The notes: generated by a model from the sequence alone, not told the origin. A stretch of 56,915 nt of DNA from an uncultured Burkholderiales bacterium (GCA_965661885.1 CBFIFN010000001.1:1-56915); one strand, 5' to 3'; positions 1,448 through 38,107 are shown, counted from the stretch's first letter. Program-made: numbers and translations.

Positions 1448-2410
1448 TTGATTAAAAAAATTACTACGGATGTTTGTGCGGCCGCGCGTTTATTAGCTGA
1501 GGGGCAACTGGTTGCGTTTCCAACGGAAACCGTTTATGGGTTGGGCGCTGACGCATTGAATCCGATTGCGGTGCGACGCGTGTACGAAGCAAAGTCTCGA
1601 CCTTTTGATCACCCTTTGATTGTTCATATTGGGCATAAGCACTTGCTTGACGAATTTGCTGTAAAAATACCTGAAAATGCCAGAGCTTTGGTTAATCATT
1701 TTTGGCCTGGCCCACTCACTTTAGTATTGGAAGCTTCGGATCGAGTGCCGCGTATTGTTACAGGCGGTCAAGATACTGTGGCGATAAGGCTCCCTGCACA
1801 CCCCCTGACACTTTCCTTGTTAAAGGAATTTAAAGGTGGAATGGTCGGGCCATCTGCCAATAAGTTTGGTCGGCTTTCTCCAACCAATGCGTCGGACGTG
1901 GATAGAAATTTTGGATCAGAGGTGGGGCTTGTTCTCGATGGAGGAGCTTGTGGTGTTGGTATAGAATCTACCATCATCGGATTTGACGGTGAGAGTCCGG
2001 TTATGTTGCGGCCCGGTATGATTACCAAGACGGCTATATCGGAAGCGATAGCGACTGGTTTCGTGAACGTTGGTAGTAAATCCCCGAGAGTTTCCGGGTC
2101 CTTGCCTTCGCATTATGCACCCACAACAAAATTGATCCTTCTGGAATCAAACAATATTAGGCGTTATCTAAAAGAGAATGTTGAATTACAAAGCGTAGCG
2201 TTGTTAACTTTCCAACCTTTTTGCATAGCACATCCAGGGCAGGTGATTCATGCGTTAAAAGATCCGAACGATTATGCAAAGCATTTGTATCAGCGCTTAA
2301 GAGAGCTTGACCAAGGCCCTGCTAAAATAATAATTGTAGAGTCAATCCCCTTTGGGGATGCCTGGGACGGTATCCGAGATAGGTTGGTCAGAGCAGCAGG
2401 TTCGCTTTAG
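1448..2410 (+). CDS. tsaC: L-threonylcarbamoyladenylate synthase, Sua5/YrdC family with a C-terminal Sua5 domain (TTG start)
   Basis: 'FPTETVYGLGADA', 'KxRPxDHPLIVHI' and 'SANKFG' are YrdC-domain motifs. The 320-aa length implies the extra Sua5 domain. A GGGGGA Shine-Dalgarno lies upstream. Confidence 0.85.
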   Translation: MIKKITTDVCAAARLLAEGQLVAFPTETVYGLGADALNPIAVRRVYEAKSRPFDHPLIVHIGHKHLLDEFAVKIPENARALVNHFWPGPLTLVLEASDRVPRIVTGGQDTVAIRLPAHPLTLSLLKEFKGGMVGPSANKFGRLSPTNASDVDRNFGSEVGLVLDGGACGVGIESTIIGFDGESPVMLRPGMITKTAISEAIATGFVNVGSKSPRVSGSLPSHYAPTTKLILLESNNIRRYLKENVELQSVALLTFQPFCIAHPGQVIHALKDPNDYAKHLYQRLRELDQGPAKIIIVESIPFGDAWDGIRDRLVRAAGSL

Positions 2411-3582
2411 TTGGCGTTGATTAAGTAATCAAGCGCCTCAGAAATCCCACCTCTATTAAAAGGAAATGAACATATCTCCAATCCCATCTCAATGCCTGAT
2501 AGGACACCAGTTAAGGACAAATCATTAAGCTCTCCTAGGTGACCAATTCGAAATACCTGATCATTAAATTTGCCGAGACCTGTTCCGAGTGACATGTTGA
2601 ATTGACTTAAGATTTTTTCTCGTAACTGATTCGCGCTAAATTTATCAGGTGTCATCACGGCGGTAACGGTATTACTAAATGCCTTTGGATTCTGACACAC
2701 CAATTCGAGACCCCAGTGTCGAACCGCCGCTCGAGTGGCCGCCGCGTGGCGCGCATGTTTATTAATAACGTTTTCGAGTCCGATTACATCCAGTATGAGT
2801 TTGAGCGATTCTTGTAATCCGAAAATTAAATTTGTTGCCGGCGTATAAGGAAAAAAACCTCTTTCGTTATGACTTATGATCTCATTCCAATCCCAATAAC
2901 TTTTTGGAAATTGAGATTTAGCATGACATTTTAAGGCTCGATTGCTTACTGCGTTAAAGGATAAGCCTGGCGGCAGCATGAGACCTTTTTGAGAGGCGCC
3001 AATGGACACATCGGCTCCCCACTCCTCATGCTTGTAATCAATGGAAGCGAGAGAGGACACCGTATCCACTAGTAAGAGGGCTTGATGCTTTGTCTCATCG
3101 ATTGCTTTTCTTATCGCAGGAATATCAGAGGTTACGCCAGTCGATGTTTCATTATGAACGATACAGACTGCTTTGATGTCTTGATTGATATCGTTTTTTA
3201 AATGTTCGAATAACTGTGCGGGGTCGACAGGCGAACGCCAATCGGATTTAATGACTTGCACCTCAAATCCAAGGTTAATAGCAAGGCGTCTCCATTGGGC
3301 TGCGAAGTGTCCTGTCTCGTATATCAAAATGGTTTCACCCGGGTTAAGTACGTTGACGAGGCTTGCCTCCCAAGCTCCAGTGCCGGAAGCGGGAAACAAA
3401 ATAACCGAATTGGTCGTTTTGAATATGCGTTTTAAATTAAATAATATTTCTAGACCAAGTTTTCCAAATTCCTCACTCCGGTGGTCAATGGTTGGCTTAG
3501 CAAGTGCTGTTAGCACAACATCGGGAATATTTGTCGGGCCAGGGATTTGAAGGTAATGCCTACCAGGCGAATGGTTACTCAT
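2407..3582 (-). CDS. Class V PLP aminotransferase, serine-glyoxylate / alanine-glyoxylate (SGAT/AGXT) type
   Basis: 'PGRHYLQIPGPTNIPDVV...DHRSEEF', 'FPASGTGAWE', 'VHNETSTGV' and the PLP-lysine motif 'GASQKGLMLPPG' align closely by eye with methylotroph SgaA. Confidence 0.8.
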   Translation of the reverse strand: MSNHSPGRHYLQIPGPTNIPDVVLTALAKPTIDHRSEEFGKLGLEILFNLKRIFKTTNSVILFPASGTGAWEASLVNVLNPGETILIYETGHFAAQWRRLAINLGFEVQVIKSDWRSPVDPAQLFEHLKNDINQDIKAVCIVHNETSTGVTSDIPAIRKAIDETKHQALLLVDTVSSLASIDYKHEEWGADVSIGASQKGLMLPPGLSFNAVSNRALKCHAKSQFPKSYWDWNEIISHNERGFFPYTPATNLIFGLQESLKLILDVIGLENVINKHARHAAATRAAVRHWGLELVCQNPKAFSNTVTAVMTPDKFSANQLREKILSQFNMSLGTGLGKFNDQVFRIGHLGELNDLSLTGVLSGIEMGLEICSFPFNRGGISEALDYLINAN

Positions 3583-4003
3583 GTTTCACTTCCTATAAGC
3601 GAGTTCTCGTTTGGGGAGGTTCATTATGTGCATTGTATTTTTACAGAATTTGTTCGGCATATTCGAATCAGTGTATCTCTGGGTCATCGGTGACGGCATT
3701 ACCACTTACTAAAAAATCAAAGTCGAATTTGTTTTTAGCCTGCTGAACATGCTTAGAGAATAAGTGACTGTAACCTCGTTTGAGGTGATTGTCTGACATA
3801 CCTTCGCGCGCTAAATATAGTTAATTTCGAAGTCACCGTGGCATACTATATGGTCGCAGTCAAAATAAAAATACTAAGAGTAAAAGGAAATACAAAATTT
3901 AGCAGCCTAATCTGCGGGACTTAAGTTGAGAGACTGAGATAAAATAACGAGCGAGTAGATCTTTGATTTTTGGCTGGATAATTACCAAGAGAGGGTTGAT
4001 TAA

Positions 4004-5326
4004 ATGATTAATGATCGTATAGACGTAAATATAGCAGGAGGCCTCGATGTCCCCTTGCCCCGCATGGTCCATGTAAGACAGAAGTTTGAGCTCTCTAAGA
4101 TTTCCAGCGTGGCCGATACTGTGGCTCAGGAATTCACAAAAATTGCTATAAAATCCAAGATTAAGCCAGGGATGACAATTGCTGTGGGCGTCGGCTCCAG
4201 AGGCGTAAATAATATAGCCGAATGCGTTAAATCAGTCGTCGAAGAAATTAAAGCGTTAGGAGGAGAGCCTTTTGTTTTTCCAGCGATGGGTAGCCACGGC
4301 GGGGCAACCGCTGAAGGCCAACAAGAGGTATTAGATAGCTATGGCGTTACAGAGTCATTTATAGGTTGTCCAATTCGGTCTAGCATGGAGGTTGTAGAGA
4401 TCGATAAGGCTGAGGACGGCATGCCGGTTTTTATGGATAAGTTCGCAGCTGAAGCCGATGCTATAGCCCTCGTGTGTCGCATAAAGCCGCACACAAATTT
4501 TAGAGCACCTATTGAATCAGGTATTGTAAAAATGCTGACGATTGGGATGGGTAAAATAATAGGCGCGTCTACACTGCACACGTACGGCATGGATATGTTT
4601 GGTGTACTGTTGCCCAATGTGGCAAAAATAGTCATGGCAAAGAAAAACTTCTTGTTTGGAGTAGCCATGGTTGAAAACGCAGCTGACGAAACGGCGATTG
4701 TTGAAATTGTTCCAAGTGACGAGGTGCTGAGCCGGGAACCATTGCTTTTATCGCGGGCGAAGGAGTTGATGCCGAAATTACAATTCGAAGACATCGACGT
4801 TTTAGTGGTTGAAAAAATCGGAAAAAACATTTCCGGGTCAGGTATGGATCCGAACATAACGGGCCGTAATTGTCGTGATGTCGAATGGGAGATGAGCCCT
4901 AATGTAAAGAAAATTGCTGTGCTGGGACTAACTCCGGAAACACACGGCAATGCCACTGGTTTAGGCGCCGCGGATGTCATCACAATGGACGTATATCGGG
5001 AGCTGGATATTGCTAAGACCTACGCCAACGTGATCACGTCGATGTACTTAGACGGCGCGGCGATACCTATCATTATGAACAATGATCGTGAGGCAATACA
5101 GCTTGCGGTAAAAACCGTGGTAAGAGTTAAGCCAGAAAACATAAAGATCGTGAGGATTTCTACGACACTCGAAGTCATGGATTTGCATGTTTCCGAGAAT
5201 CTATTGCCCTACATCAAAAACAATCCAGATAAATTTGAGATTTTAGGTGAACCAGAGGCCACTAAGTTCGACGATAACGGTAAAATTTACCCGATGATGG
5301 CTGCGAGCGCACACGTCAACGCATAA
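4004..5326 (+). CDS. LarA-like (lactate racemase N-terminal domain, formerly DUF2088) putative NPN-dependent 2-hydroxyacid racemase/epimerase; substrate unknown
   Basis: By-eye alignment to L. plantarum LarA gives three matches. 'AMGSHGGAT' matches 'ATGFHRPST' (His98 ~ His108). 'KPHTNF...GIVKML' matches 'ESHFFAGFSGGRKSVL' (His163 ~ His174, Lys176 ~ Lys184). 'TLHT' matches 'ANHS' (His192 ~ His200, with the same 16-residue Lys-to-His spacing). larC, larE and larB follow directly. Confidence 0.6.
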   Translation: MINDRIDVNIAGGLDVPLPRMVHVRQKFELSKISSVADTVAQEFTKIAIKSKIKPGMTIAVGVGSRGVNNIAECVKSVVEEIKALGGEPFVFPAMGSHGGATAEGQQEVLDSYGVTESFIGCPIRSSMEVVEIDKAEDGMPVFMDKFAAEADAIALVCRIKPHTNFRAPIESGIVKMLTIGMGKIIGASTLHTYGMDMFGVLLPNVAKIVMAKKNFLFGVAMVENAADETAIVEIVPSDEVLSREPLLLSRAKELMPKLQFEDIDVLVVEKIGKNISGSGMDPNITGRNCRDVEWEMSPNVKKIAVLGLTPETHGNATGLGAADVITMDVYRELDIAKTYANVITSMYLDGAAIPIIMNNDREAIQLAVKTVVRVKPENIKIVRISTTLEVMDLHVSENLLPYIKNNPDKFEILGEPEATKFDDNGKIYPMMAASAHVNA

Positions 5327-5359
5327 GTTTATTTTGTTGTTATTACGTAATTTATTAAA

Positions 5360-6547
5360 ATGGCGAAAATGCGAGTTCACTTAGATCCTACAGGCGGAGT
5401 CGCTGGCGATATGTTTATTGCCGCCATTTTGGACGCCAAACCTGAATGGTATGAAGGGATGTGCAAGGCTATTAGTGACGCTGGTTTGCCCAAAGAGATC
5501 GCGTTATCTTTACTGCCTCATTCCGACTTTGCCCTCACGGGGACGCGCTTCAATGTAGAGGAACCTGAGGCAAATAAGCATCATCACATGTTATTTTCTG
5601 ACATCAGAGAGATGCTCATGGAGTCTGTTTTGGCAGTTAGCGTGCGTCAAGTAGCGATTGATATTTTTTGCCTCTTAGCAAAGGCTGAAGCAGAGGTGCA
5701 CGGCAAGACTATAGAAACGATTAGTTTCCATGAGGTTGGTGAGTGGGATTCGATCGCGGATATCGTGGGAGCTGCTTATCTGATTGATAAGTTATCTGCT
5801 TCTTGGACTCTCGGGTTATTGCCATTGGGGCGCGGCACAGTGCAGACGAGCCATGGCATATTAGCCGTGCCGACTCCTGCTACTGTAAAATTATTAACAG
5901 GTTTTAATTTTTATGACGACGGTCTGGATGGCGAGCGTGTTACGCCGACTGGCGCCGCCATATTGGCATACCTTCAACCGAAGCAATCGGGGGCCGCGGA
6001 GGGTGGCAAATTAGTTGTATCAGGTACGGGGTTCGGTACTAAATCACTCCTTGAGAAAAGTAACGTTCTGCGTGTCCTGATGTTGTCTGGACTAGAGCAA
6101 CAAAGTCAAAGTGACAACATTTATCAAATTGATTTTGACATTGATGACCAGAGTGCTGAGGACTTAGCGATTGGTCTGAATCATATTCGTGCAATCTCTT
6201 CAGTTCTTGATGTGTCTCAGGCGGTACTTTTTGGTAAAAAGGGTCGGGTTGTAAATTCAATTCGCATTCTCGCTGAGACTACAGATGTCGATAAGGTTTT
6301 TGAAGCATGTTTTAATGAAACGACAACAATAGGTTTACGCTACCAAGAGTTGATGCGTGTGACTTTAGATCGTTGGGAAAAAAAATTCATGACTGATGGG
6401 CTAGAAGGACGAAGTAAATTTGTAACCCGACCACATGGAGTAACGCTTAAAGTTGAATCGGACGACCTTGCCTCAACAAAGGGACATGCTAATCGAGAGC
6501 GAATACGAAGATATATCGCGGCAAAATGTGAGACTCCAATTGATTGA
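5360..6547 (+). CDS. larC: Nickel-pincer cofactor biosynthesis protein LarC (nickel insertion, DUF111 family), single uninterrupted ORF
   Basis: N-terminus 'MRVHLDPTGGVAGDMFIAAILDA' matches the LarC/DUF111 signature. A short His cluster 'KHHHM' is present. The ORF sits between the LarA-like gene and larE. Confidence 0.85.
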   Translation: MAKMRVHLDPTGGVAGDMFIAAILDAKPEWYEGMCKAISDAGLPKEIALSLLPHSDFALTGTRFNVEEPEANKHHHMLFSDIREMLMESVLAVSVRQVAIDIFCLLAKAEAEVHGKTIETISFHEVGEWDSIADIVGAAYLIDKLSASWTLGLLPLGRGTVQTSHGILAVPTPATVKLLTGFNFYDDGLDGERVTPTGAAILAYLQPKQSGAAEGGKLVVSGTGFGTKSLLEKSNVLRVLMLSGLEQQSQSDNIYQIDFDIDDQSAEDLAIGLNHIRAISSVLDVSQAVLFGKKGRVVNSIRILAETTDVDKVFEACFNETTTIGLRYQELMRVTLDRWEKKFMTDGLEGRSKFVTRPHGVTLKVESDDLASTKGHANRERIRRYIAAKCETPID

Positions 6548-7382
6548 AGGAATATCCGAACATAAAAAAGACCTATTCGCGTTGTTCGCTGACATGCAGG
6601 AGATTTCAGTTGCGGTTAGTGGTGGTATTGATAGCATCACACTAGCAATGTTGGCACACCAAACGCCAAACGTTTCTGTGCGAATGTATCATGCCGTTTC
6701 ACCTGCGGTGCCTCGCCAGGCGACTGAACGAGTGAAGCAACTTGCTTTCGATTTTGATTGGGATCTTGAAATACTAAATGCTCAAGAATTTCGAGACGAA
6801 AGTTATTTATCTAACCCCGTCAACCGTTGTTTTTTTTGTAAAACAAATTTATATAAAGCGATATCAACTTTTACTGAGGGCGTTATATTTTCTGGTGCAA
6901 ATATGGATGATTTATCCGATTATCGACCGGGACTACAAGCGGCGCGAGATGCAAATGTTCGACATCCGTTTGTGGAAACGGGTACAGATAAAAAAATGGT
7001 CAGGACCATTGCGAAACAAATTGGTCTGGAACATTTGTCAGAGCTGCCGTCGTCACCCTGTCTCTCTAGTCGAGTTGAAACAGGTACACGTATAGATCCG
7101 GATCTCCTTCCGCTAATTAATGAGGTAGAGCTTTTGATTAAGGAATTGCTCTTCCCAGAACCGAAGACCGTTAGGTGTCGTGTTCGAGCTAATGGCTTAG
7201 TGATTGAGTTGGATCATGAAGCTGCAGGTGGTTTAACGCTGCAAAAAAAGGAGATATTGAAAGAAAAGATAGCTCAAGTTTTTAAAATAAAAAATCATAA
7301 GTATCCAGTGAGATTTGAAGTATATAAAGTCGGTAGCGCGTTTATTCATTTGCAACCCATGCGGACTGTGAAGGCACAATGA
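6486..7382 (+). CDS. larE: ATP-dependent sulfur transferase LarE (PP-loop); start uncertain (ATG 6486, GTG 6528 or TTG 6540; the ORF-track TTG 6453 is probably too far upstream)
   Basis: PP-loop 'SVAVSGGIDS', 'DYRPGLQAARD' and 'SSPCLSSR' correspond to LarE 'SGGIDS', 'DYRPGLKARSE' and 'ASCSVSSR'. The stop overlaps the larB ATG (ATGA). Confidence 0.85.
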   Translation: MLIESEYEDISRQNVRLQLIEGISEHKKDLFALFADMQEISVAVSGGIDSITLAMLAHQTPNVSVRMYHAVSPAVPRQATERVKQLAFDFDWDLEILNAQEFRDESYLSNPVNRCFFCKTNLYKAISTFTEGVIFSGANMDDLSDYRPGLQAARDANVRHPFVETGTDKKMVRTIAKQIGLEHLSELPSSPCLSSRVETGTRIDPDLLPLINEVELLIKELLFPEPKTVRCRVRANGLVIELDHEAAGGLTLQKKEILKEKIAQVFKIKNHKYPVRFEVYKVGSAFIHLQPMRTVKAQ

Positions 7383-8047
7383 GCTTGCAGAAAGATGTTG
7401 AGTTAGACTTTAATCGAGAGAACCGTATAGGACTTGATGAAGCCATATTTTGTGAAGGAAAAACGGCTGGTCAGATCGCTGAAATCCTTCGTCAGGCGCA
7501 TTCAAAGCAGCATCGATTTCTGCTCACGCGTCTATCGCAGGAGAAACAAAAAGATGTGCTTAGCTTAGGCGATTTTGATATAGATTACGATCCGACCTCG
7601 AGGACGGGATTCTATCCGACGCCGCATAACCTTTTGAGCGATGGTCATGTTTCGGTTATTTGCGCAGGTACTTCAGATGTTCCTGTGGCTAGAGAAGTTA
7701 TGCGCACTTTACAATATTACGGACATCTTGCAATGGAGATCTCAGATGTGGGGGTAGCGGGATTATGGCGGTTGCTTGATCGATTGGAAGACATTAGATC
7801 TGCTAAGGTTATTATCGTGGTAGCTGGGATGGATGCTGCGTTACCAACCGTTTTGGGTGGATTGGTCGGTCAGCCGTTAATTGGGGTGCCTACGTCTGTT
7901 GGTTACGGCGTAGCCAATGGAGGGAGCGCCGCCCTTCATGCGATGCTCGTCAGTTGCTCTCCTGGGATAACTGTCACGAATATTGACAACGGGTATGGGG
8001 CTGCATGTGCTGCTTTGAGAATTCTCAAAACAGCACACAATCAATAG
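7379..8047 (+). CDS. larB: Nickel-pincer cofactor biosynthesis protein LarB (PurE-like NaAD carboxylase/hydrolase)
   Basis: 'RIGLDEAIFCEGKT', 'ICAGTSDVPVAREV' and 'VAGMDAALPTVLGGLVGQPLIGVPTSVGYG' match LarB segments by eye. Confidence 0.85.
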   Translation: MSLQKDVELDFNRENRIGLDEAIFCEGKTAGQIAEILRQAHSKQHRFLLTRLSQEKQKDVLSLGDFDIDYDPTSRTGFYPTPHNLLSDGHVSVICAGTSDVPVAREVMRTLQYYGHLAMEISDVGVAGLWRLLDRLEDIRSAKVIIVVAGMDAALPTVLGGLVGQPLIGVPTSVGYGVANGGSAALHAMLVSCSPGITVTNIDNGYGAACAALRILKTAHNQ

Positions 8048-8536
8048 TTAGTGATTAGCAAGTTCGGCGGCTATCGCATCTATGCCAGCTTGAGCGCAAA
8101 TCCCGTCGTCACTTGCTGGTGCGCCAGAGACCCCGATTGAACCAATGTGTTCGCCGCTAGCGGTCATCACTGGAAGACCGCCCTCAAATGCAGCGACGCC
8201 AGGAACGTGTGCGATACCCGGAACTCGAGTCGCGGCTATCTCTTCAACGACTTTAGTAGAGAAAGGAAATCCGGCTGAAGTTTCTGCCTTAAGGATTGCG
8301 ATTTCAATACTCTTTAAAAACGCTCTATCCATGCGCTGGAAGTAAATTAGATTGCCACCGGCATCCATGATGGCGATGTTCATGCGCCAGCCCTCTACAG
8401 TCGCTCTTTTTTCACAGGCTTGCGCCATTTTTTTTGCCATATCCAATGTCATTACGGGACGCAATTCTACTGCGTTAGCGCTACTAAATAGCGCTGCAGA
8501 AAAAGACAAAATAATAAGATTAATAAATTTCTTCAT
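8048..8536 (-). CDS. GlcG/HbpS-like (DUF336) haem-binding/haem-degrading family protein with a signal peptide
   Basis: Signal peptide 'MKKFINLIILSFSAALFSSANA|VE'. 'AIMDAGGNLIYFQRMD...IAILKAETS' and 'IGSIGVSGAPASDDGICAQAG' are GlcG-family motifs. Confidence 0.7.
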   Translation of the reverse strand: MKKFINLIILSFSAALFSSANAVELRPVMTLDMAKKMAQACEKRATVEGWRMNIAIMDAGGNLIYFQRMDRAFLKSIEIAILKAETSAGFPFSTKVVEEIAATRVPGIAHVPGVAAFEGGLPVMTASGEHIGSIGVSGAPASDDGICAQAGIDAIAAELANH

Positions 8537-8607
8537 GTTTTTGCTCCTAAAATGTAGATTTTAAAAATCTCCCCCTGTGATCCTACTACATAATAACCTT
8601 GCGGCCG

Positions 8608-9948
8608 TTAAAGTACGTAGCGAGCGAGATCTTCGCTTTCTGATAGACCTTTGAGTCTCTTGTCAACGTATGCCACGTCTATTGAGATACGCTGTCCGTG
8701 CTTTTGCGACGCATCAAAGGATAGATCTTCTAGGAGTTTTTCCATAACTGTATAAAGTCGACGAGCACCGATATTTTCTGTTGACTCGTTAACGTGCCAG
8801 GCAATCTCTGCGATTCGTCGTATCCCTTCGGGTGCGAAAACGAGAGTGATATTCTCGGTTTGCATTAACGCTTCGTATTGCTTGCATAAACACGCATCGG
8901 TAGACGTAAGGATGCATTCAAAATCTTTAACGTCTAGACTTGTTAGTTCAACTCGGATTGGAAATCGCCCCTGAAGTTCGGGAATAAGGTCAGATGGTTT
9001 AGCAAGGTGGAAAGCGCCACTACCAACAAATAAAATGTGGTCAGTTTTAACCATCCCATATTTAGTTGAAACGGTGGTTCCTTCGACAAGAGGCAGTAAA
9101 TCTCTTTGAACACCTTGTCGCGATACTTCCCCTCCGCTTGTTTCTTGCCGACTTGAAATCTTATCAATTTCGTCTAAAAAAACAATACCGTTTTCTTCTG
9201 CGTTGGCGATTGCAGCTGTTTTAATTTCATCGTCATTGATGAGTTTGCTAGCTTCCTCCTCAGTGAGCACTTTCAGTGCTTCGTTAATTTTCAATTTTCT
9301 TTTTTTTGTTTTTTTTGCACCTACATTTTGGAACATGCCTTGTATTTGAGAAGTAAGGTCCTCCATTCCTGGCGGCGCAAGTATTTCCATTTGAGCATCA
9401 ACTTGTGCGATGTCAATTTCTATTTCGCGGTCGTCTAATTCTCCCTCACGAAGTCGTTTTCTAAACTTCTGACGTGTCGGATTTTGATTATCGACGCGCG
9501 TTTCATCGTCGTCATTGTCATCGAGCTCGCGGGCGGGCGGTAAAAGGACATCTAATATACGCTCCTCTGCTTGATCTTCAGCTAAGTGCTTTATTCGGAG
9601 TGTTTCCTTCTCTCTCATTTGTTTAATGCCGATTTCTATGAGGTCCCTAATAATGGACTCCACGTCTTTGCCAACGTAACCAACTTCGGTGAATTTGGTG
9701 GCTTCGACTTTAATGAATGGCGCATCTGACAGACGTGCTAAGCGCCTAGCTATTTCTGTCTTACCCACGCCGGTGGGGCCTATCATGAGTATGTTCTTGG
9801 GCGTAATCTCTGATTTGAGTGGCTCGGCGACTTGTTTTCTTCTCCATCGATTTCTAAGAGCGATGGCGACGGCTCGTTTTGCCGTGTCTTGACCTACGAT
9901 GTGTTTATCAAGTTCGTGAACTATTTCTTGCGGGTTCATATGAGACAT
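8608..9948 (-). CDS. hslU: ATP-dependent protease ATPase subunit HslU
   Basis: '[32 protein letters not shown]' and Walker A '[15 protein letters not shown]' are near-identical to E. coli HslU segments. Confidence 0.95.
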
Positions 9949-9969: not shown

Positions 9970-10512
9970 CTATTTAGATAGGACTTCTATCGTGTGGTTT
10001 TGATTAGTATAGATACATATGTCACCGGCAATTGTAAGTGCCGTTTTGACTATTTGTTCTGCTGTTTGATCTGAATGTTGTATTAAGGCTTTGGCCGCTG
10101 CTTGTGCAAACCCACCGCCACTCCCGATCGCTATCAATCCATCTTCGGGCTCTATCACATCACCGTTTCCCGTAATGATGAGGGACGTAGTGAGATCGGA
10201 GACTGCGAGCATTGCTTCGAGCTTTCTAAGAATACGATCAGTTCGCCAATCCTTCGCAAGCTCCACCGCAGAACGCAGCAGTTGGCCTTGGTGTTTTTCA
10301 AGTTTGGCTTCGAATCGTTCAAATAACGTGAATGCATCAGCGGTGCCGCCAGCGAACCCAGCTAATATTTTCCCTTGATATAGAGTTCGAACTTTTTTAG
10401 CAGTCCCTTTCATGACGCTATTTCCTAAAGTCACCTGTCCGTCACCCCCGATTGCTACTTGATCGCCCTTTCTCACCGAGATAATCGTTGTTCCGTGTAT
10501 TTCATATTTCAT
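9970..10512 (-). CDS. hslV: ATP-dependent protease subunit HslV
   Basis: '[26 protein letters not shown]' and '[15 protein letters not shown]'; located immediately upstream of hslU. Confidence 0.95.
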
Positions 10513-10599
10513 TTGGGGTCAATTCCCTTTTTTAAAAAGCGTTGTGTTTTAGTTTAGAGATGTGCAATTCGACGTATTGGTTTTACGACGTCACATTTA

Positions 10600-11244
10600 T
10601 CAGAGATCAACCAGCGCCGTCCCATGATTAAGATGGTTTGTTCGATTAAAACTTTTTAATGCAAAATTCCGCGTTTGGTGATTATAAATGAATTGATGTA
10701 TCGATCCATTGCTGATTTTGGGTTTTTCATTTTCGCTCATTGCACTCTTTTTCGCGAGACGCCAGAGAACATCAATGACTCCGCCGTGCGTGGTGATCAG
10801 TATATTACCCTCGCTAAATCGGCGATAGATTGTAGAAAGAGCGGATAGCACTCTTTGGCTAAATGCTTCCATGGTTTCGGCTCCCTCAGGCGTTGTTACA
10901 TACGATTTGTTTAGAAATGCTTTGAGATCGTTTTTAGCTTTTACTTTTGCGTCAGAAACTAAAAGGCCCTCTAAGACGCCTAATTGTCGTTCGCGTAGCG
11001 AAGAGTCCAAAATGATCGGCAGACGACCGTTTTGATTAGGTTGCGCCGTTTGTTGAGCCCGTATTAAATCACTACTGATTATCCCTTGAAATATTGTTGT
11101 ACTTAATGTGGACGCAACAGCTCGCGCTTGTGCAACGCCGGTGGCATTAAGTGGAACGTCAATTTGGCCTTGAATACGTCGAGTTAGGTTCCAATCAGTT
11201 TCGCCGTGGCGGACAACGGTAAGTTCTAAAATATTTTGTGTCAC
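10600..11244 (-). CDS. Histidine phosphatase (phosphoglycerate mutase) family protein
   Basis: N-terminal catalytic motif 'VVRHGETDWN' and a downstream 'THGGVI'. There is a 4-nt overlap with the xerC stop. Confidence 0.75.
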   Translation of the reverse strand: MTQNILELTVVRHGETDWNLTRRIQGQIDVPLNATGVAQARAVASTLSTTIFQGIISSDLIRAQQTAQPNQNGRLPIILDSSLRERQLGVLEGLLVSDAKVKAKNDLKAFLNKSYVTTPEGAETMEAFSQRVLSALSTIYRRFSEGNILITTHGGVIDVLWRLAKKSAMSENEKPKISNGSIHQFIYNHQTRNFALKSFNRTNHLNHGTALVDL

Positions 11245-12137
11245 GAATTCGGTTTTCTTTTAGCCCTTGGGTGGGTTTGGTCATATATCTTGGCTAGATG
11301 TTGCCAATCTAGATGCGTATAAACTTGTGTTGTTGAAATGCTGGCATGTCCTAACATTTCTTGAACGGCTCTTAAATCGCCGCTTGATTGCAGAAGGTGC
11401 GTAGCAAAAGAATGCCTCAACATATGTGGGTTTACGTTTTGTCCTAGGCCTTGTTTTTTCGTCCATTGCGATAGGCGATGTTGAATGGTTCTAGGGCTTG
11501 TTTGTCCTCCATTTTTATTGGGAAATAAAAACCCACTGATCGGCTTGTTAATATTTAGCCTCATATCCATCCACCGGTTGATCGCAAGAATAGCTTTTTC
11601 CCCCACAGGGATAATTCTTGTCTTGTTTCCTTTTCCTGTGACGCGAACAGTGCCCCCGTTAAGGTCTAGGTTTGCTAGCGTTACCGAGGATAGTTCACTT
11701 AAACGAAGTCCCGATGAGTAGCATAGCTCGAACATTGCTTGATCTCTGAGGCTCGCTTCTCCTTCTGTGGACATATCAAGCAATCTATGGATTTCGTCAG
11801 GACTCAATGCTTTCGGTAAAGTGAGGTCTTTTTTGGGTGCTTTTATACCAACGCAAGGATTGTTTTTGTAGCCTTTGCGTTCAATCAAAAAGTTAAAGAA
11901 GCTTCGCCAGGCCGATAAAGCTCTTGATAAAGTGCTTCCTCCTTGTCCTTTCGCATGTAATTTTCCAATTAATTTACGTATCTCGTGCGTTGCTACGCGT
12001 TCCAAGCTGGATGAAAATTCCTTGCTTAATAATTTAATATCTCTTGCGTAGCTTTCAACTGTCTTTTGAGACAATCGTCGTTCTTTTTCTAAATACGTCA
12101 AGTATTCGCTAATGGTCGTATGTTCGAAATCGTTCAT
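11241..12137 (-). CDS. xerC: Tyrosine recombinase XerC
   Basis: C-terminal 'HMLRHSFATHLL...GDLRAVQEMLGHASISTTQVYTH' holds the tyrosine-recombinase catalytic residues. The dapF-DUF484-xerC synteny is present. Confidence 0.85.
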   Translation of the reverse strand: MNDFEHTTISEYLTYLEKERRLSQKTVESYARDIKLLSKEFSSSLERVATHEIRKLIGKLHAKGQGGSTLSRALSAWRSFFNFLIERKGYKNNPCVGIKAPKKDLTLPKALSPDEIHRLLDMSTEGEASLRDQAMFELCYSSGLRLSELSSVTLANLDLNGGTVRVTGKGNKTRIIPVGEKAILAINRWMDMRLNINKPISGFLFPNKNGGQTSPRTIQHRLSQWTKKQGLGQNVNPHMLRHSFATHLLQSSGDLRAVQEMLGHASISTTQVYTHLDWQHLAKIYDQTHPRAKRKPNS

Positions 12138-15973: not shown

Positions 15974-16051
15974 CTCGATAACATTTGGATTTCTTGGTGG
16001 GTTTTGATACCCTTTGACCCGATTTCTACATTAGTTATGGGACAAGTTGCT

Positions 16052-17215
16052 ATGCGCGAACATTTATTTACATCTGAATCCGTCTCGGAAGGGCACCCTG
16101 ATAAAGTTTCTGATCAAATATCAGACGCCGTTCTTGATGCTATTTTAGCGCAAGATCCAGTAGCCAGGGTGGCAGCTGAAACTTTGGTGAATACTGGACT
16201 TGTGGTGATGGCTGGTGAAATCACAACGTCAGCTAATGTGGATTTTCAGCAAGTTGCGAGAGATACCCTCAAGCGCATTGGCTACAACAGCAGTGATTTT
16301 GGAATCGATTACAAAGGTTGCTCGGTACTCGTGGCGTATGACAAACAGAGTCCCGACATTAAGCAAGGTGTGGATGCCGCGCATGATGATCCGCTTAATC
16401 AAGGGGCTGGCGATCAGGGATTGATGTTCGGATACGCTTGTGATGAAACTGACGTCTTTATGCCGTTGGCTATTCATTTGTCGCACCGGCTCGTTGAGCG
16501 GCAGTCTGAATTACGTCGTGATGGACGGTTGCCCTGGTTAAGGCCAGACGCTAAGTCGCAGGTGACGTTGCGATACGTTGATGGAAAGCCGCAGGCGATA
16601 GACACGGTCGTGCTATCAACGCAACATGCGCCCGAGATGGAGTTAGACCAAATCAGAGAGGCGGTCATAGAGGAGATAATTAAACCGGTGATACCAAATG
16701 ATCTGATCCAAGGTGAAATTAACTACCTCGTCAATCCAACCGGACGTTTTGTTGTTGGTGGACCTCAGGGAGACTGTGGTCTGACGGGACGAAAAATTAT
16801 TGTGGATACTTATGGCGGCGCTGCGCACCATGGTGGAGGAGCTTTTTCGGGAAAAGATCCATCTAAAGTGGATCGATCTGCAGCCTATGCGGCTCGATAT
16901 GTCGCCAAAAATGTGGTCGCTTCGGGCTTAGCGTCGAAATGTGAGGTGCAAATTTCCTACGCGATAGGGGTGGCTGAGCCAACAAGCGTTTCGGTAACAA
17001 CTTTTGGGACAGGACGTATCGATGATGACCGAATAGCCAAATTGGTAGCAGAGAATTTTGATTTGCGACCCAAAGGCATTGTACAAATGCTTAATTTATT
17101 GAGACCCATTTACGAGAAAACAGCCGCATATGGGCACTTCGGCCGTGACGAGCCGGAATTTTCATGGGAATCTCTTGATAAAGTTGAAACTTTAAAGGCC
17201 GCTTTAAAGTCGTAG
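16052..17215 (+). CDS. metK: S-adenosylmethionine synthase (start trimmed to ATG 16052)
   Basis: '[26 protein letters not shown]' matches the E. coli MetK N-terminus '[19 protein letters not shown]'. '[12 protein letters not shown]' and '[16 protein letters not shown]' are also present. Confidence 0.95.
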
Positions 17216-17231
17216 TATAATGAAATGTATT

Positions 17232-17298
17232 GCTGAGGAGCGTTGCGACTCTTCCGAAAAATCGGAGGGCTAGGCTCAGCACAGGAAACGACGCTCAC
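17232..17298 (+). promoter_or_regulatory. SAH (S-adenosylhomocysteine) riboswitch aptamer in the ahcY leader
   Basis: The sequence 'GAGGAGCGUUGCGAC...UCCGAaaaaUCGGA...AGGCUCAG...GGAAACGACGCUCAC' matches the conserved SAH-riboswitch core as I recall it. P1 'gagcgt' (17238-17243) pairs with 'acgctc' (17291-17296). There is an internal hairpin tccga/tcgga. The element lies directly 5' of ahcY, its classic target. Confidence 0.8.
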
Positions 17299-17334
17299 AA
17301 ACTAGAAACTGATTGGTTTGTGGGCTTTTTTATT
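17293..17334 (+). terminator. Intrinsic terminator / riboswitch expression platform
   Basis: A 10-bp stem, gctcacaaac (17293-17302) with gtttgtgggc (17316-17325, one G-U), is followed by TTTTTTATT. The 5' arm overlaps the 3' strand of aptamer P1, so the two structures are mutually exclusive. Confidence 0.6.
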
Positions 17335-17371: not shown

Positions 17372-18790
17372 ATGTCAGCAGTATTGCAACAAAATTCATC
17401 CGTCGGCGATTACTTGGTGGCGGATCTATCTCTATCGCCTTGGGGTAGAAAAGAAATGTCGATTGCCGAAATCGAGATGCCAGGATTAATGGCTATTCGA
17501 GAGGAATTCAGTGCCAGTAAGCCTTTGAAGGGCGCTCGGATTGCTGGTTCGCTCCACATGACTATTCAAACAGCAGTATTAATTGAGACACTAACAGCAC
17601 TTGGTGCAGAGGTTCGCTGGGCTTCTTGTAACATTTATTCTACTCAGGACCATGCTGCTGCGGCGATTGCTGAATCAGGTGTACCAGTTTTTGCGTTCAA
17701 GGGCGAGACTTTGGAACAATATTGGGATTACTGTCATAAAATCTTTGAGTGGCCTTCAGATCAGGCGAATATGATTCTTGATGATGGGGGAGACGCCACT
17801 CTATTACTTCATTTGGGTACAAAAGCTGAGAGTGATTTGTCGGTTTTGAGCAAGCCTTCTAGCGAAGAGGAGCGTGTCCTTTATGCTGCGATTAAGAAGA
17901 AATTGGCCACGGATCCAAAATGGTATTCGGTTCGGTTGGCGGCGGTAAAAGGTGTCACAGAAGAGACAACCACCGGCGTGAAGCGTCTTATCGAGATGGC
18001 TGCGGATAAGTCACTAGCGTTCCCAGCGATCAATGTGAACGATTCCGTAACGAAATCTAAATTTGATAACCTCTACGGCTGTCGTGAATCACTTGTTGAC
18101 GCCATAAAACGTGCCACCGATGTGATGGTTGCTGGAAAAGTTGCAGTTGTTGCTGGTTTTGGTGACGTTGGCAAGGGTTCTGCTCAGGCGCTGCGAGCGT
18201 TATCAGCCCAAGTTTGGGTTACTGAGGTCGATCCTATTTGTGCGTTGCAAGCCGCTATGGAAGGGTTTCGCGTTGTAACCATGGAATATGCAGCCGATAA
18301 AGCTGACATTTTCGTTACAGCCACAGGGAATTACAACGTTATACATCACGATCATATGGCGGCGATGAAGAATGAGGCCATTGTTTGTAACATCGGACAC
18401 TTTGACAATGAAATCGATGTGGCGTCTATTGAGAACTATACATGGGAGAATATTAAGCCCCAAGTCGATCATATTGTTTTCCCCGATGGTAAGAAAATAA
18501 TTCTCTTGGCTCAGGGTCGTTTGGTGAACTTAGGATGTGCAACTGGACATCCGAGTTATGTCATGAGTTCTTCTTTTGCGAATCAAGTAATCGCTCAAAT
18601 TGAGCTATTCAATGATCCTGAGAAGTACCCGCTTGGTGTTCATGTATTGCCTAAGCATCTTGACGAGAAGGTGGCTAGGCTTCAATTGGCTACTTTGAAC
18701 GTGCAATTAACCGAACTAACCGATGATCAGGCAAAGTATATTGGTGTGGACAAGACCGGTCCATATAAGCCAGAGATGTATCGATATTAA
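17372..18790 (+). CDS. ahcY: Adenosylhomocysteinase
   Basis: '[29 protein letters not shown]', the NAD-binding '[16 protein letters not shown]' and 'GHFDNEID' are canonical AhcY motifs. Confidence 0.95.
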
Positions 18791-18974: not shown

Positions 18975-20207
18975 TTAAGCTGCGTTTTTCAAAGGCTTGT
19001 TGTTAGTTGGGCGAGCCGCATATGCGTGGTATGCGGCTGCTTCTGCAGCACCCACTTCAATTTTAGCACCCATGTTGTCAAAAACGCTTTCAAGTGCGCA
19101 AAGACACAGCATTACATTTTCCATTTTGCAGCTATACCCCATAATTCCGAACCGCCAGATTTTCCCGGCTAGTGGGCCCAAGCCTGCTCCTATTTCAATA
19201 TTCATTTCTTCAAGTAGTCGACGACGAACTTCTTGCTCATCTATACCTGGCATGACGTGTACCGCGTTCATTTGCGGTAATCGATATTCCTCATCAACCA
19301 AGTAGCTGAGGCCTAAGGTTTCAAGACCTGCTTTCAGAGCGAGATGATTTCGTCGATGCCTGGCCCATGATGCTTCCAGTCCTTCGTCCCTGAGCATTAC
19401 TAGTGCCTCGTGTAGGGAGTAAAGAGAGTTGGTGGGCGCTGTGTGGTGATATGTACGATTACTCTCACCCCAATATCCGAGGAGCAGATTAAGATCCATG
19501 AACCAACTTTGAACTTTATGTTTTCGATTTTTAACTAATTCTACAACTCGATCACTGAATGTGATCGGAGATAATCCGGGCGTGCAGGATAAGCATTTTT
19601 GGCTACCTGAATAAACCGCGTCTAAACCCCACTCATCAACTAGGACCGGAATGCCGATTAGTGATGTTACTGTGTCTACGATGGTTAATGCGTCAAATTC
19701 GCGCGCAATTGCTGCTAATGTTTTGGCGTCAGAACGTACGCCGGTAGATGTCTCCGCGTGGACAAAGGCAAGAATTTTTGTGTCCGGGTTGTTAACAAAC
19801 GCCTCGCGAACTTTTTCCGGATCCACGGGCTTCCCCATTGGATCTTCGACAACTATGGCGGTGCCACCACAACGTTCGACATTCTCAATCATGCGACCAC
19901 CAAAAACTCCATTTCGACAAACGATGACTTTGTCACCAGGGCTAACCATATTTACGAAACACATTTCCATTCCGACGGAACCTGGCCCTGATACTGGAAA
20001 TGTCATTGCGTTTTTTGTTTGAAATGCGTAACGCAATAATTCTTTCAGTTCTTCCATCATCCCCACGAAAACCGGGTCGAGGTAACCGATAGTGGGTCTA
20101 CCCATTGCAGAAAATACGCGAGGGTGTATCTCGGAGGGCCCTGGGCCCATAAGTGTTCTTTGGGGGGGGTAAAAGGAGTTAACGTCAGAATAAGATTGAT
20201 TGCTCAT
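18975..20207 (-). CDS. Class V PLP aminotransferase (alanine-glyoxylate / serine-pyruvate family), second paralogue in the window
   Basis: 'HAETSTGV' and the PLP-lysine motif 'YSGSQKCLSCTPGLSP'; fold-type I class V layout. Confidence 0.8.
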   Translation of the reverse strand: MSNQSYSDVNSFYPPQRTLMGPGPSEIHPRVFSAMGRPTIGYLDPVFVGMMEELKELLRYAFQTKNAMTFPVSGPGSVGMEMCFVNMVSPGDKVIVCRNGVFGGRMIENVERCGGTAIVVEDPMGKPVDPEKVREAFVNNPDTKILAFVHAETSTGVRSDAKTLAAIAREFDALTIVDTVTSLIGIPVLVDEWGLDAVYSGSQKCLSCTPGLSPITFSDRVVELVKNRKHKVQSWFMDLNLLLGYWGESNRTYHHTAPTNSLYSLHEALVMLRDEGLEASWARHRRNHLALKAGLETLGLSYLVDEEYRLPQMNAVHVMPGIDEQEVRRRLLEEMNIEIGAGLGPLAGKIWRFGIMGYSCKMENVMLCLCALESVFDNMGAKIEVGAAEAAAYHAYAARPTNNKPLKNAA

Positions 20208-34152: not shown

Positions 34153-34401
34153 CTAGCCAGCGCCGATGGGTGGAATGAGGTGAATGTCACTGTGTTCCCC
34201 GATAGGAGCAAACAGAATATCTTGATAGATTTCACCGTCAATTGCCACAGCGAAACCTTCAGATTCGATCAGTGGTGCTAAAGCAGGACATATTTGTTTA
34301 AGCTCCTTTACCAACTGGTGCACGCTTCTCGCCTGGATATTAAATTCAGACACACCACCAGCCAGATTCTTTAGAGAACCGGTGAGGATAAGTTGTGCCA
34401 T
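34153..34401 (-). CDS. MoaD/ThiS-family beta-grasp (ubiquitin-like) small protein with a C-terminal ...PPIGAG
   Basis: 82 aa. By-eye alignment to E. coli MoaD: 'GDEVAFFPPVTGG' against 'HSDIHLIPPIGAG'. It starts 14 nt after the stop of the Mo-hydroxylase large subunit. Confidence 0.6.
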   Translation of the reverse strand: MAQLILTGSLKNLAGGVSEFNIQARSVHQLVKELKQICPALAPLIESEGFAVAIDGEIYQDILFAPIGEHSDIHLIPPIGAG

Positions 34402-36689: not shown

Positions 36690-36721
36690 GTCGTGTACCT
36701 CTTTCTCTAAAGTCTCAATCT

Positions 36722-37198
36722 TCAGGTATTTCTGGCTTCGGCTGCAACTTCAAGGACGGCCCTAACGATCTTATCGTAACCGGTACAACGACAAAGATTG
36801 CCTGCTAACCAAAATCGAACTTCTTCTTCCGTAGGATTTTTATTTTTTGCCAGAAGGGCTTTAGCAGCAACTAAAACGCCGGGCGTGCATATGCCGCATT
36901 GAAGCGCCGCAAGATCGATAAATTTTTGTTGCAAAGGATCCAAGGATGAGCCCGATGATAGACCCTCAATGGTTTCGATTTCTTTTCCATCTGTCTCGAC
37001 CCCGAGGACGAGGCAGGCGCACACGAGTCTACCGCCCATCATGACGCTACAGGCCCCGCAGTCGCCCGTAGCACACCCTTCTTTGCTCCCCTTTAAGTCT
37101 AACTCGTGCCGTAAAACATCAAGAAGAGTTTGTTGTGGATTGCAAAGAAATTCGTGGGTGTCCCCGTTGATCTGTGTTGAAACATGTATTTTTGACAT
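36722..37198 (-). CDS. (2Fe-2S)-binding small subunit of the Mo hydroxylase (CoxS-like)
   Basis: Two cluster motifs: 'CATGDCGACSV' and 'QCGICTPG...CRCTGY'. Confidence 0.9.
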   Translation of the reverse strand: MSKIHVSTQINGDTHEFLCNPQQTLLDVLRHELDLKGSKEGCATGDCGACSVMMGGRLVCACLVLGVETDGKEIETIEGLSSGSSLDPLQQKFIDLAALQCGICTPGVLVAAKALLAKNKNPTEEEVRFWLAGNLCRCTGYDKIVRAVLEVAAEARNT

Positions 37199-37220
37199 TT
37201 TTTATTTTTCAGTCGGTGTT

Positions 37221-38075
37221 TTAGTGGGTAGTCGCGCGTTCAAACGCGAGTGTGAAAGTCCGCTTGGCAAGCACGCCTGCAATTTTTGTTCGATACTCAA
37301 CGGTACCTCGTTTGTCTTTGATTGGTTTACATGCCGATTCAGCTATCGAAACCAGTTGTTTTATTAAATCTTCATCCGGCACTTTGCCGATAAAAATGTC
37401 CTCTAAACCATTAAGTAAAACTTGTGTGGGAGCTATCGCACCTAGGGATACTCGAATAGAGGTTATTTTTTTGTTTTCATCTACGCTTAGTGATGTGCCT
37501 GCCCCAACCACTGCGATATCCATTTCGCTACGGGGAATCAGGCGCAGGTAGGCATCGCCTGAAGCGTTAGTGGGTTTAGGGAGTTTAAACCCGAGAACAA
37601 ATTCTCCTTTTTCGAGTGCATTAACGCCCGGGGATATCACAATTTTTTCGATTGGTTCCTCGCGCTCGCCTGTTTGTCCGGATATGATGCATGTTCCACT
37701 TGCGGCGATGAGTGCTGGCACGCTATCAGCTGCAGGAGAGGCATTACATAAGTTTCCTCCGAGAGTTGCACGACCTTGAATTTGTGTTGAGCCAATTAAC
37801 GATAATGCCTCCACAACGCCCGGCCAGTCTTTGCTCAAGGATTTATGTTCGACAATTTCAGCACACGGTGTCGCCGCGCCTATCCACCAACTGTCAGCGG
37901 ATTCTTCAATAGTCATAATTTTTGGAATTTGCTTGATGTCAACAACTAAGGTCGGGGTTAAATACTGGGTTTTTAGTTTGACCAGTAAATCGGTTCCCCC
38001 AGCCAGAGCAAATGCGCCTTCTTGAATTAGCGCCTCACTTGCCTCATGTGCGGTTTTTGGTGCGACATAGTCCAT
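37221..38075 (-). CDS. FAD-binding medium subunit of the Mo hydroxylase (CoxM-like); start trimmed to ATG 38075
   Basis: 'DYVAPKTAHEASEAL...LAGGTDL' (FAD_binding_5 type) and 'ATLGGNLCNASPAADS'. A GGAGAA Shine-Dalgarno lies 7 nt before ATG 38075. Confidence 0.8.
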   Translation of the reverse strand: MDYVAPKTAHEASEALIQEGAFALAGGTDLLVKLKTQYLTPTLVVDIKQIPKIMTIEESADSWWIGAATPCAEIVEHKSLSKDWPGVVEALSLIGSTQIQGRATLGGNLCNASPAADSVPALIAASGTCIISGQTGEREEPIEKIVISPGVNALEKGEFVLGFKLPKPTNASGDAYLRLIPRSEMDIAVVGAGTSLSVDENKKITSIRVSLGAIAPTQVLLNGLEDIFIGKVPDEDLIKQLVSIAESACKPIKDKRGTVEYRTKIAGVLAKRTFTLAFERATTH

Positions 38076-38107
38076 GATGCTTTTCTCCGTAAACATTCAT
38101 TAGTGCG

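Follow-up and report, generated by a model that had tools for sequence, protein, structure and literature searches.

We have examined a four-gene unit, larAH-larC-larE-larB, that occupies positions 4004-8047 of a 56,915-nucleotide (57-kb) stretch of DNA from an uncultured marine Burkholderiales bacterium (Betaproteobacteria; GCA_965661885.1, CBFIFN010000001.1:1-56915), referred to below as the window, with positions counted from its first nucleotide. The unit concerns nickel-pincer nucleotide (NPN), the cofactor of the lactate racemase LarA and its homologs. LarB carboxylates and hydrolyzes nicotinic acid adenine dinucleotide (NaAD), LarE turns both carboxylates into thiocarboxylates and LarC inserts nickel to give NPN, which in LarA homologs is tethered by a Lys, with a His binding the Ni and two His driving the proton-coupled hydride transfer that inverts the C2 hydroxyl. 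All four open reading frames (ORFs) lie on the plus strand and all exceed curated NCBIfam cut-offs; the LarA homolog falls into the catalogued Group 22 of its superfamily. The features of the locus are as follows.

2407-3582, minus strand: class-V (AGXT/BhcA-like) aminotransferase (Pfam Aminotran_5; NF045640; synteny in loci L007-L016)
3668-3799, minus strand: relic of a dehydratase gene, IlvD/EDD family, L-arabinonate-dehydratase-like (tblastn; alignment to locus L012; locus L089)
3940-3945, plus strand: -10-like hexamer TAAAAT, 58 nt 5' of the larAH ATG, putative promoter belonging to the cassette itself
4004-5326, plus strand: larAH, LarA homolog of Group 22, 440 amino acids, predicted NPN-dependent isomerase (NF052515; residues; hhalign; AF2 model)
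5360-6547, plus strand: larC, nickel-inserting cyclometallase with LarC1 and LarC2 fused (Pfam Ni_insertion, 282 bits; TIGR00299; NF052512)
6486-7382, plus strand: larE, ATP-dependent sulfur insertase, ORF from 6453 (TIGR00268; start ambiguous)
7379-8047, plus strand: larB, NaAD carboxylase/hydrolase (NF033503)
8048-8536, minus strand: GlcG/HbpS-like (PF03928) protein with an N-terminal signal peptide (Pfam, 112 bits)

The spacing is tight, with 33 nt between larAH and larC, larE overlapping larC, and the start of larB overlapping the stop of larE (ATGA); candidate starts for larE are found at 6453 (TTG), 6486 (ATG), 6528 (GTG) and 6540 (TTG). An earlier reading of the window from its sequence (the original prediction) had proposed four co-directional, closely packed lar genes forming a complete NPN module, and both the gene calls and the NCBIfam scores confirm this. 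LarC gives 169 bits on TIGR00299 (cut-off 90) and 81 bits on NF052512 (cut-off 50) and is one ORF that contains both of its parts without a frameshift, and LarB reaches 265 bits on NF033503 (cut-off 175). LarE scores 223 bits on TIGR00268 (cut-off 150) and contains the PP-loop SGGIDS, although a Pfam scan, in which LarC and LarB are clear, returns no match to it. It also carries CFFC and a distal Cys (...SSPCLSSR...), which together make up a CXXC-C motif that is the mark of the catalytic, [4Fe-4S]-dependent LarE of Thermotoga maritima and not of the single-Cys sacrificial L. plantarum type (Chatterjee et al. 2022, PMC9283937). Judged by this motif the window LarE is of the [4Fe-4S] type, and the NCBIfam name 'sacrificial sulfur transferase' is probably misleading in this case.

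In order to place the LarA homolog we compared it with curated models and with the groups defined by Desguin et al. (2020, Sci Rep 10:18123, PMC7583248). It matches NF052515, "nickel pincer cofactor-dependent isomerase, group 22", with 531.5 bits against a cut-off of 400, the match running over residues 18-406 and model positions 1-391 of 392; no NCBIfam lactate-racemase model matches the protein, and beside group 22 only an 18-bit malate-racemase trace is seen. Group 22 is listed in PMC7583248 with 20 members and the entry "Unknown function", and the window protein aligns end to end, at 44-48% identity, with Rxyl_2987, Bcoa_1745, Cagg_0419 and BMD_3424 from that list (Rubrobacter, Bacillus coagulans, Chloroflexus and B. 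megaterium). At the positions corresponding to LarA D72, R75, H108, H174, F175, F176, K184 and H200, where the published residue table gives A/V, R, H, H, T, D/S/A, K and H for Group 22, the window protein has V63, R66, H98, H163, T164, N165, K176 and H192, and so shares the A/V-R-H-H-T-x-K-H signature, with Asn at the Phe176 equivalent in place of the Asp, Ser or Ala that are commoner elsewhere in the group. The original prediction was right that this is a divergent LarA homolog, but the branch is not an undescribed one, being Group 22 of PMC7583248 and NF052515. The family is large, with 4,183 clusters at 50% identity reached at E ≤ 1e-3 and 1,178 at E ≤ 1e-30; no database record was found for the exact sequence of the window protein.

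The distance to LarA itself is considerable. Neither phmmer nor a profile of 31 homologs found LarA chains among PDB sequences and the Pfam Lar_N model is narrowly missed (see below), in agreement with the description of the protein in the original prediction as only distantly similar to lactate racemase. Because these sequence searches of the PDB gave no LarA match, profile-profile and fold comparisons were used. Alignment of Group 22 against LarA (Groups 1, 2, 19, 20 and 23) by hhalign gives a probability of 90.6% and an E value of 1.3e-6 over residues 20-182, pairing H98, H163 and K176 of the window protein with H108, H174 and K184 of L. plantarum LarA. The hhalign alignment ends at residue 182, and H192 is equated with LarA H200 because of the identical 16-residue Lys-to-His spacing and the Group 22 entries of the residue table in PMC7583248; the four residues had been numbered exactly in the original prediction. 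In a sample of 147 diverse relatives at 36-63% identity K176 and H192 are invariant (147/147), as are S172, G173, G181, G273, K274, N342 and P355, and R66, H98 and H163 are each kept in 146. Position 165, the equivalent of LarA Phe176 and a specificity position, varies between D, S, A, N and G. Further along the chain D282-P-N-I-T286 stands where LarA has Y294-Q-A-V-K298, and the substrate side of the pocket has therefore been rebuilt. The residues of LarA that are replaced in Group 22 include Gln295 and Lys298, which we take to help hold the substrate carboxylate. Features of lactate racemase sensu stricto (Group 1) are thus lacking, with Thr164-Asn165 in place of Phe175-Phe176 and neither Gln295 nor Lys298 present. 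By its profile matches and residues, the protein is a genuine member of the NPN-dependent LarA superfamily, catalogued as Group 22, and not a lactate racemase.

The fold comparison leads to the same placement. An AF2 model calculated from a diverse alignment of 98 sequences has a pLDDT of 91.9 and a pTM of 0.89, and replaces an earlier model from 31 close homologs, the C-terminal domain of which was of low quality (pLDDT 70). The 19 best PDB matches in Foldseek all belong to the LarA family (9EIA, 2YJG, 9Q3J/K, 7S91, 6D6Z, 5HUQ, 6C1W, 8EZF/H and 4NAR among them), with E values from 3e-11 to 9e-8, TM scores of 0.44-0.56 and 12-15% identity, while the first match outside the family has an E value of 1e-3 and a TM score of 0.19. 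The window protein is accordingly modeled with the two-domain fold of LarA.

Three known systems are useful for comparison. With L. plantarum LarA (PDB 5HUQ) the window protein shares the cofactor genes, the Lys tether, the His ligand to Ni, the two catalytic His, the equivalent of Arg75 and the two-domain fold, yet identity is 12-14%, undetectable by phmmer, and the substrate-side residues are replaced; the operons differ as well, the window having an unbroken larC, a CXXC-C LarE in place of the single-Cys sacrificial protein, and neither lactate-related genes nor larR, larD or larMNQO. GntE, a D-gluconate/D-mannonate 2-epimerase (LarAH19/20; T. maritima TM0442, PDB 4NAR), has the same fold (Foldseek E 8.5e-8) and provides our working model of NPN-dependent aldonate C2 epimerization that feeds a dehydratase-based sugar-acid pathway, an activity that is demonstrated for GntE and predicted for the window protein. 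Identity between the two is nevertheless ∼12%, and GntE has Glu-Val/Ser, Trp and Lys298 where the window protein has Thr-Asn and lacks a Lys298 equivalent. The single-histidine LarA homologs (Groups 14, 15 and 17; PDB 9Q3J/9Q3K), for which roles in carbohydrate metabolism have been proposed, are also among the best structural matches; these have Asn for the second catalytic His, whereas Group 22 keeps both.

The 420-bp region that separates larAH from the aminotransferase gene (3583-4003) turns out not to be plain intergenic DNA, as it holds the relic of a dehydratase gene. The last 36 codons, running from 3778 down to 3671 and followed by the stop at 3668-3670, are preserved inside a residual ORF of 43 codons, and the encoded peptide, RGYSHLFSKHVQQAKNKFDFDFLVSGNAVTDDPEIH followed by the stop, is 58% identical to residues 509-543 of a 543-residue dehydratase (tblastn E 1.3e-7) and ends at the same stop. 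The intact gene is found in the closest relatives (loci L007-L016, LarAH identity 80-87%), which are metagenome-assembled genomes (MAGs) and single-amplified genomes (SAGs) of marine/aquatic Burkholderiales, including UBA3031, TMED22, AH-141-I18 and Ca. Eutrophovita. Here the minus strand carries, divergently from larAH, the dehydratase, in some cases an RraA-like gene, and the aminotransferase, and it follows that the aminotransferase gene of the window is what remains, at the distal end, of an operon once headed by the dehydratase. The intact dehydratases score 935-991 bits on NF009559, "L-arabinonate dehydratase" (cut-off 882). We also considered whether they might be housekeeping ilvD, an assignment that was rejected as they fail the IlvD equivalogs and pass the one for L-arabinonate dehydratase. 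The RraA-like protein (NF006093, related to HMG/CHA aldolase/oxaloacetate decarboxylase; L007 6869-7588, L016, and L001 329-1048) is missing from the window and may be the aldolase of the pathway.

The extent of the loss is readily seen in a DNA alignment with L012 (intact dehydratase gene at 8068-9792), in which window 3414-3777 corresponds to L012 7810-8171 and window 3801-4098 to L012 9801-10095, so that ∼1.63 kb, essentially the whole body of the dehydratase gene, has gone and the divergent promoter region has been kept. An assembly artifact was considered and rejected, since the deletion is shared, with a more decayed relic, by L089, a contig from a separate metagenome that is 90.5% identical in nucleotides over 4.9 kb; the deletion is therefore genuine and of long standing. 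When the two genomes that carry it are compared, dN/dS is 0.067 for larAH, 0.061 for larC, 0.167 for larE and 0.129 for larB, values that imply that the cassette is functional without a neighboring dehydratase.

To see how the cassette is placed more generally we examined 80 species-level betaproteobacterial loci, of which 69 extend 1.6 kb or more upstream, and read them by tblastn with defined queries, as crude ORF clustering of these high-GC loci gave many spurious long ORFs. The LarAH22 proteins of this subclade are 66-97% identical to one another and are absent from the 20 Group 22 sequences of PMC7583248. Genes for LarC, LarE and LarB follow larAH in 77, 71 and 68 of the 80 loci, respectively, with many of the remaining contigs ending earlier. 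Directly upstream and co-directional with larAH is glgA, in 61 of the 69 loci, at a distance of 72-231 bp (median 95); glgB precedes glgA, and glgC and two GH57 genes are divergent (L017-L088; for example L005 4591-14252, L026, L030 and L059). The glgA genes encode true GlgA according to NCBIfam (575-584 bits, cut-off 459). The link of the cassette to glgB-glgA is strikingly consistent and unexplained. In seven loci out of 69 it is instead the dehydratase that adjoins larAH, in divergent orientation, and in one a different gene lies upstream; the aminotransferase is found in 6 of the 80. The same dehydratase ortholog recurs in other arrangements, directly downstream of larB in L065, divergent from glgA in L071, and juxtaposed also in L054, and it lies 2-8 kb away in L001, L004, L024 and L027, with unrelated genes between in part of the clade. 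A context of glgBA or an L-arabinonate-dehydratase-like gene distinguishes these loci from other Group 22 members, where short-chain dehydrogenases/reductases (SDRs), TRAP transporters and kinases are found.

The downstream flank of the cassette is variable, with a GlcG-like gene (adjoining larB in 20 of 59 related loci), egtB/egtD, a DUF1614 gene or a GGDEF-EAL gene. Some ∼5-8 kb downstream of larAH, genes of the FGE-sulfatase/DinB_2 and Methyltransf_33 families, which we read as egtB and egtD of ergothioneine biosynthesis, recur in about 15 loci (L001, L004, L021, L026-L048), and DUF1614 in five. On the upstream side nearly all loci (L009-L088 and the window) have a -10-like hexamer (TAAAAT, TACAAT, CACAAT or TAGAAT) at 25-85 nt from the larAH ATG; a GC-rich hairpin generally comes next, and then an A/C-rich linker and GGAGG. 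The recurrence of this element suggests that the cassette has its own promoter, and the leader hairpin could be a 5'-terminal stabilizing or regulatory stem-loop. RNAalifold gave no consensus structure for 20 larAH leaders, for which the MAFFT alignment was inadequate. In the window, a scan of 3400-4100 for promoters and terminators returned one promoter-like site (3793-3821), no better than those in shuffled sequence, and no terminator, and did not call the TAAAAT at 3940-3945; Rfam searches found no riboswitch upstream of larAH (the window at the gathering threshold, 3550-4050 at E ≤ 1), the only match being a chance one to a snoRNA.

Outside the Betaproteobacteria the surroundings of Group 22 genes are of a different kind. 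Table S1 of Desguin et al. (PMC7583248) lists, for this group, SDRs (45%), IlvD/EDD dehydratases (30%), TRAP transporters (30%), sugar kinases, IclR and glucuronate isomerase. In Thermosinus carboxydivorans genes for TctCBA, DGOK, IclR, a GD_AH dehydratase, an HpcH aldolase, LarAH22 and ILVD_EDD all run in one direction, and Alkalihalobacillus oceani combines an MR_MLE (enolase-superfamily) dehydratase, a PfkB kinase, a KDPG aldolase, LarAH22, a 2-hydroxyacid dehydrogenase, a TRAP transporter and ILVD_EDD. An SDR gene follows LarAH22 in Polycladomyces and in a Limnochordia MAG. A further arrangement occurs in L094/L095, where a 66%-identical LarAH22 (10001-11323) has no adjacent larC, larE or larB. 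It immediately follows genes for a PQQ-dependent dehydrogenase and a cytochrome c, and precedes genes of the Iso_dh (isocitrate/isopropylmalate dehydrogenase), Ldh_1 (malate/lactate dehydrogenase) and succinyl-CoA ligase families that resemble icd, mdh and sucCD.

Considering all of these data we favor, though by no wide measure of confidence, a description of the locus as a self-contained NPN unit with a Group 22 C2 epimerase of a polyhydroxy (sugar) acid. That the window protein functions as an NPN-dependent Group 22 isomerase we hold to be highly probable from its sequence; whether its substrate is a sugar acid, making it a sugar-acid 2-epimerase, is a question of gene context on which we consider the chances evenly balanced. 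LarB, a [4Fe-4S]/CXXC-C LarE and LarC would make NPN from NaAD, and, by homology, the Group 22 enzyme would tether it via Lys176 and bind the Ni via His192, with His98 and His163 serving as acid and base in the proton-coupled hydride transfer. The C2 hydroxyl would be oxidized transiently to a ketone and re-reduced from the opposite face, as expected of a racemase or epimerase, with a polyhydroxy acid such as an aldonate, and not lactate, as the likeliest substrate. In relatives the C2 epimer might then be handed to the IlvD/EDD-type dehydratase (L-arabinonate dehydratase in NCBIfam) or to another sugar-acid dehydratase. Since dehydration across C2 and C3 erases the configuration at C2, an epimerase would let one dehydratase use both epimers, which is the logic of GntE. 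In the lineage of the window, because the dehydratase has been deleted while the cassette has stayed under purifying selection, the epimerase would serve a partner encoded elsewhere or have a role of its own. Our preference for sugar acids in Group 22 as a whole derives from its linkage to three unrelated dehydratase superfamilies and to KDG-type kinases and aldolases, and in the betaproteobacterial clade from the finding of one dehydratase ortholog beside the cassette repeatedly and in different arrangements.

Several observations weigh against this description. The usual upstream neighbor in Betaproteobacteria is glgA and not the dehydratase (61 of 69 loci), and the adjacency of the dehydratase in the marine clade could in part have come about by deletion of intervening DNA; in the window genome and L089 it is the dehydratase that has been deleted and the cassette that has been retained. 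No sugar-acid transporter, kinase or aldolase is present in the 57-kb window. At the level of the protein, Pfam PF09861 (Lar_N) is a marginal miss, with 22.3 bits (E 8e-5) against a gathering score of 23.3, although a precomputed match to it is present on many homologs, and, with Gln295 and Lys298 replaced, the substrate of the Group 22 enzyme need not be a carboxylic acid at all. Desguin et al. (PMC7583248) assayed LarAH23 and not Group 22, and our literature searches found no activity or structure reported for Group 22, nor any report on DUF2088 with aldonate or on LarA with glycogen.

The enzyme might instead racemize a small 2-hydroxy acid (glycerate, tartrate, malate or a compound related to hydroxypyruvate or glyoxylate), with its keto or aldehyde products going to the neighboring glyoxylate-type aminotransferase, in line with the glyoxylate, glycerate or hydroxypyruvate that the original prediction had drawn from the two flanking genes. 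Those genes are indeed present, and the class-V aminotransferase, which finds its best match in the Asp-glyoxylate aminotransferase BhcA, is both adjoining and syntenic in the marine clade. HMG/CHA-type aldolases, to which the RraA-like gene of L007 and L016 is related, yield pyruvate and glyoxylate or act on oxaloacetate, IlvD/EDD enzymes in general dehydrate 2,3-dihydroxy acids, and other LarA homologs are known to racemize glycerate and malate and to epimerize arabinarate. However, the aminotransferase reaches only 407 bits on the BhcA model NF045640 (cut-off 650) and occurs in few loci, the dehydratase passes the L-arabinonate dehydratase equivalog, and distant members of the group are accompanied by KDG/DGOK kinases and KDPG/HpcH aldolases that are typical of C5/C6 sugar acids. 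A Sec signal peptide, MKKFINLIILSFSAALFSSANA/VE, is evident at the N terminus of the GlcG-like protein, the gene for which is convergent with larB and abuts it without a gap; on account of the signal peptide and the orientation it is probably not a cytoplasmic partner in the pathway. As the aminotransferase is a remnant of a dehydratase-headed operon, the GlcG-like protein is secreted and convergent, and the family context points to sugar acids, the inference from the neighbors needs to be revised, and we regard a small-acid racemase as unlikely. A bolder proposal takes its lead from the ∼88% of species loci (61/69) in which the cassette is attached to the glgB-glgA end, and would make the betaproteobacterial enzyme a so far unknown component of glycogen (alpha-glucan) metabolism, isomerizing a non-carboxylate sugar, sugar phosphate or nucleotide sugar by an NPN-dependent hydride shuttle. 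The variable downstream flank, the true GlgA upstream and the loss of Gln295 and Lys298, whose part in carboxylate binding we have presumed, all fit, and NPN chemistry on neutral sugars has precedent in another fold (PMC13524815). Yet the window and its marine relatives keep the cassette without glg genes nearby, a promoter-like hexamer lies between glgA and larAH, the loci all come from one order, so that the adjacency may in part be inherited synteny, and outside the Betaproteobacteria the context is one of sugar-acid catabolism and not of glycogen. We consider this proposal quite improbable.

It is very improbable that the locus is an ordinary lactate racemase (lar) operon. While the gene set (a larA-like gene with larB, larC and larE) is that of L. 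plantarum, and several databases label homologs 'nickel-dependent lactate racemase', no lactate-racemase NCBIfam model matches, identity to the solved LarA structures is 12-15%, Phe175/Phe176 have become Thr164/Asn165, and Gln295 and Lys298 are absent. The ORF scan of the window likewise finds no lactate permease, lactate dehydrogenase or LarR. Lactate racemization is thus not implied, as the original prediction had said; the protein matches a LarA-family profile, has both the tethering Lys and the His that binds Ni, and groups apart from characterized lactate racemases. Just as improbable, and disfavored by us, is that the cassette survives as a degrading remnant of a sugar-acid pathway since lost, or that NPN is no longer used by the LarA-like protein. 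In favor of this are the deletion of the neighboring dehydratase, the decay of its relic, and the existence of LarA-like groups (12, 13 and 16) that lack the cofactor residues (PMC7583248). The four ORFs are intact, however, dN/dS has been 0.06-0.17 over the time after L089 diverged, when the deletion was already present, and the tether Lys and Ni-binding His are invariant.

Every ORF of at least 82 amino acids in the window was scanned, and no lactate dehydrogenase, lactate permease, LarR-type regulator, Ni transporter or glycogen gene was found, in agreement with the original prediction as to the first four. The remaining genes are all housekeeping ones: purK, purC, tsaC, hslVU, xerC, dapF, lpxL, metK, ahcY, ttcA, folB, mpl, aroE, mtgA, lgt, genes of methylthioadenosine salvage, a molybdopterin dehydrogenase, kup, recG, ubiA, a liv-type ABC system, hemF, purD, purH and dusB. 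An SAH riboswitch (RF01057, 50.6 bits) lies at 17229-17303 on the plus strand between metK (16004-17215) and ahcY (17372-18790), a classical arrangement. A second class-V aminotransferase paralog at 18975-20207 (minus strand) is 33% identical to the L007 aminotransferase that matches window 2407-3582, and has its best matches in BhcA and PhnW-type models, all under their cut-offs. The molybdopterin dehydrogenase (34416-38096, minus strand) has three subunits of the xanthine/CO-dehydrogenase type, with MoCo, 2Fe-2S and FAD subunits, and is followed by a small ThiS-like ORF (34153-34401).

The Group 22 branch was described in 2020 and has since been given a curated NCBI model, so that automatic annotation would now name the enzyme. 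New here are the dehydratase relic with the lineage that it marks as a natural knock-out, the finding that Group 22 genes of cultured organisms lie in a sugar-acid context, a LarE of the [4Fe-4S] type and the attachment to a glycogen cluster. Group 22 ranks among the larger branches of LarA and is widespread in uncultured Betaproteobacteria of soil, freshwater, sludge and the sea, mostly aerobes; LarA homologs have been considered typical of anaerobes. The leads that emerge are a candidate partner dehydratase, a lineage in which the cassette has outlived this partner, Firmicutes in culture whose sugar-acid clusters are open to genetics, and the glycogen link. Were the substrate assigned, nickel biochemistry would gain a reaction and a widespread mis-annotation as 'lactate racemase' would be corrected. 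The concepts of the field would stay as they are unless the link to glycogen proves functional, in which case LarA-fold chemistry would be extended beyond 2-hydroxy acids.

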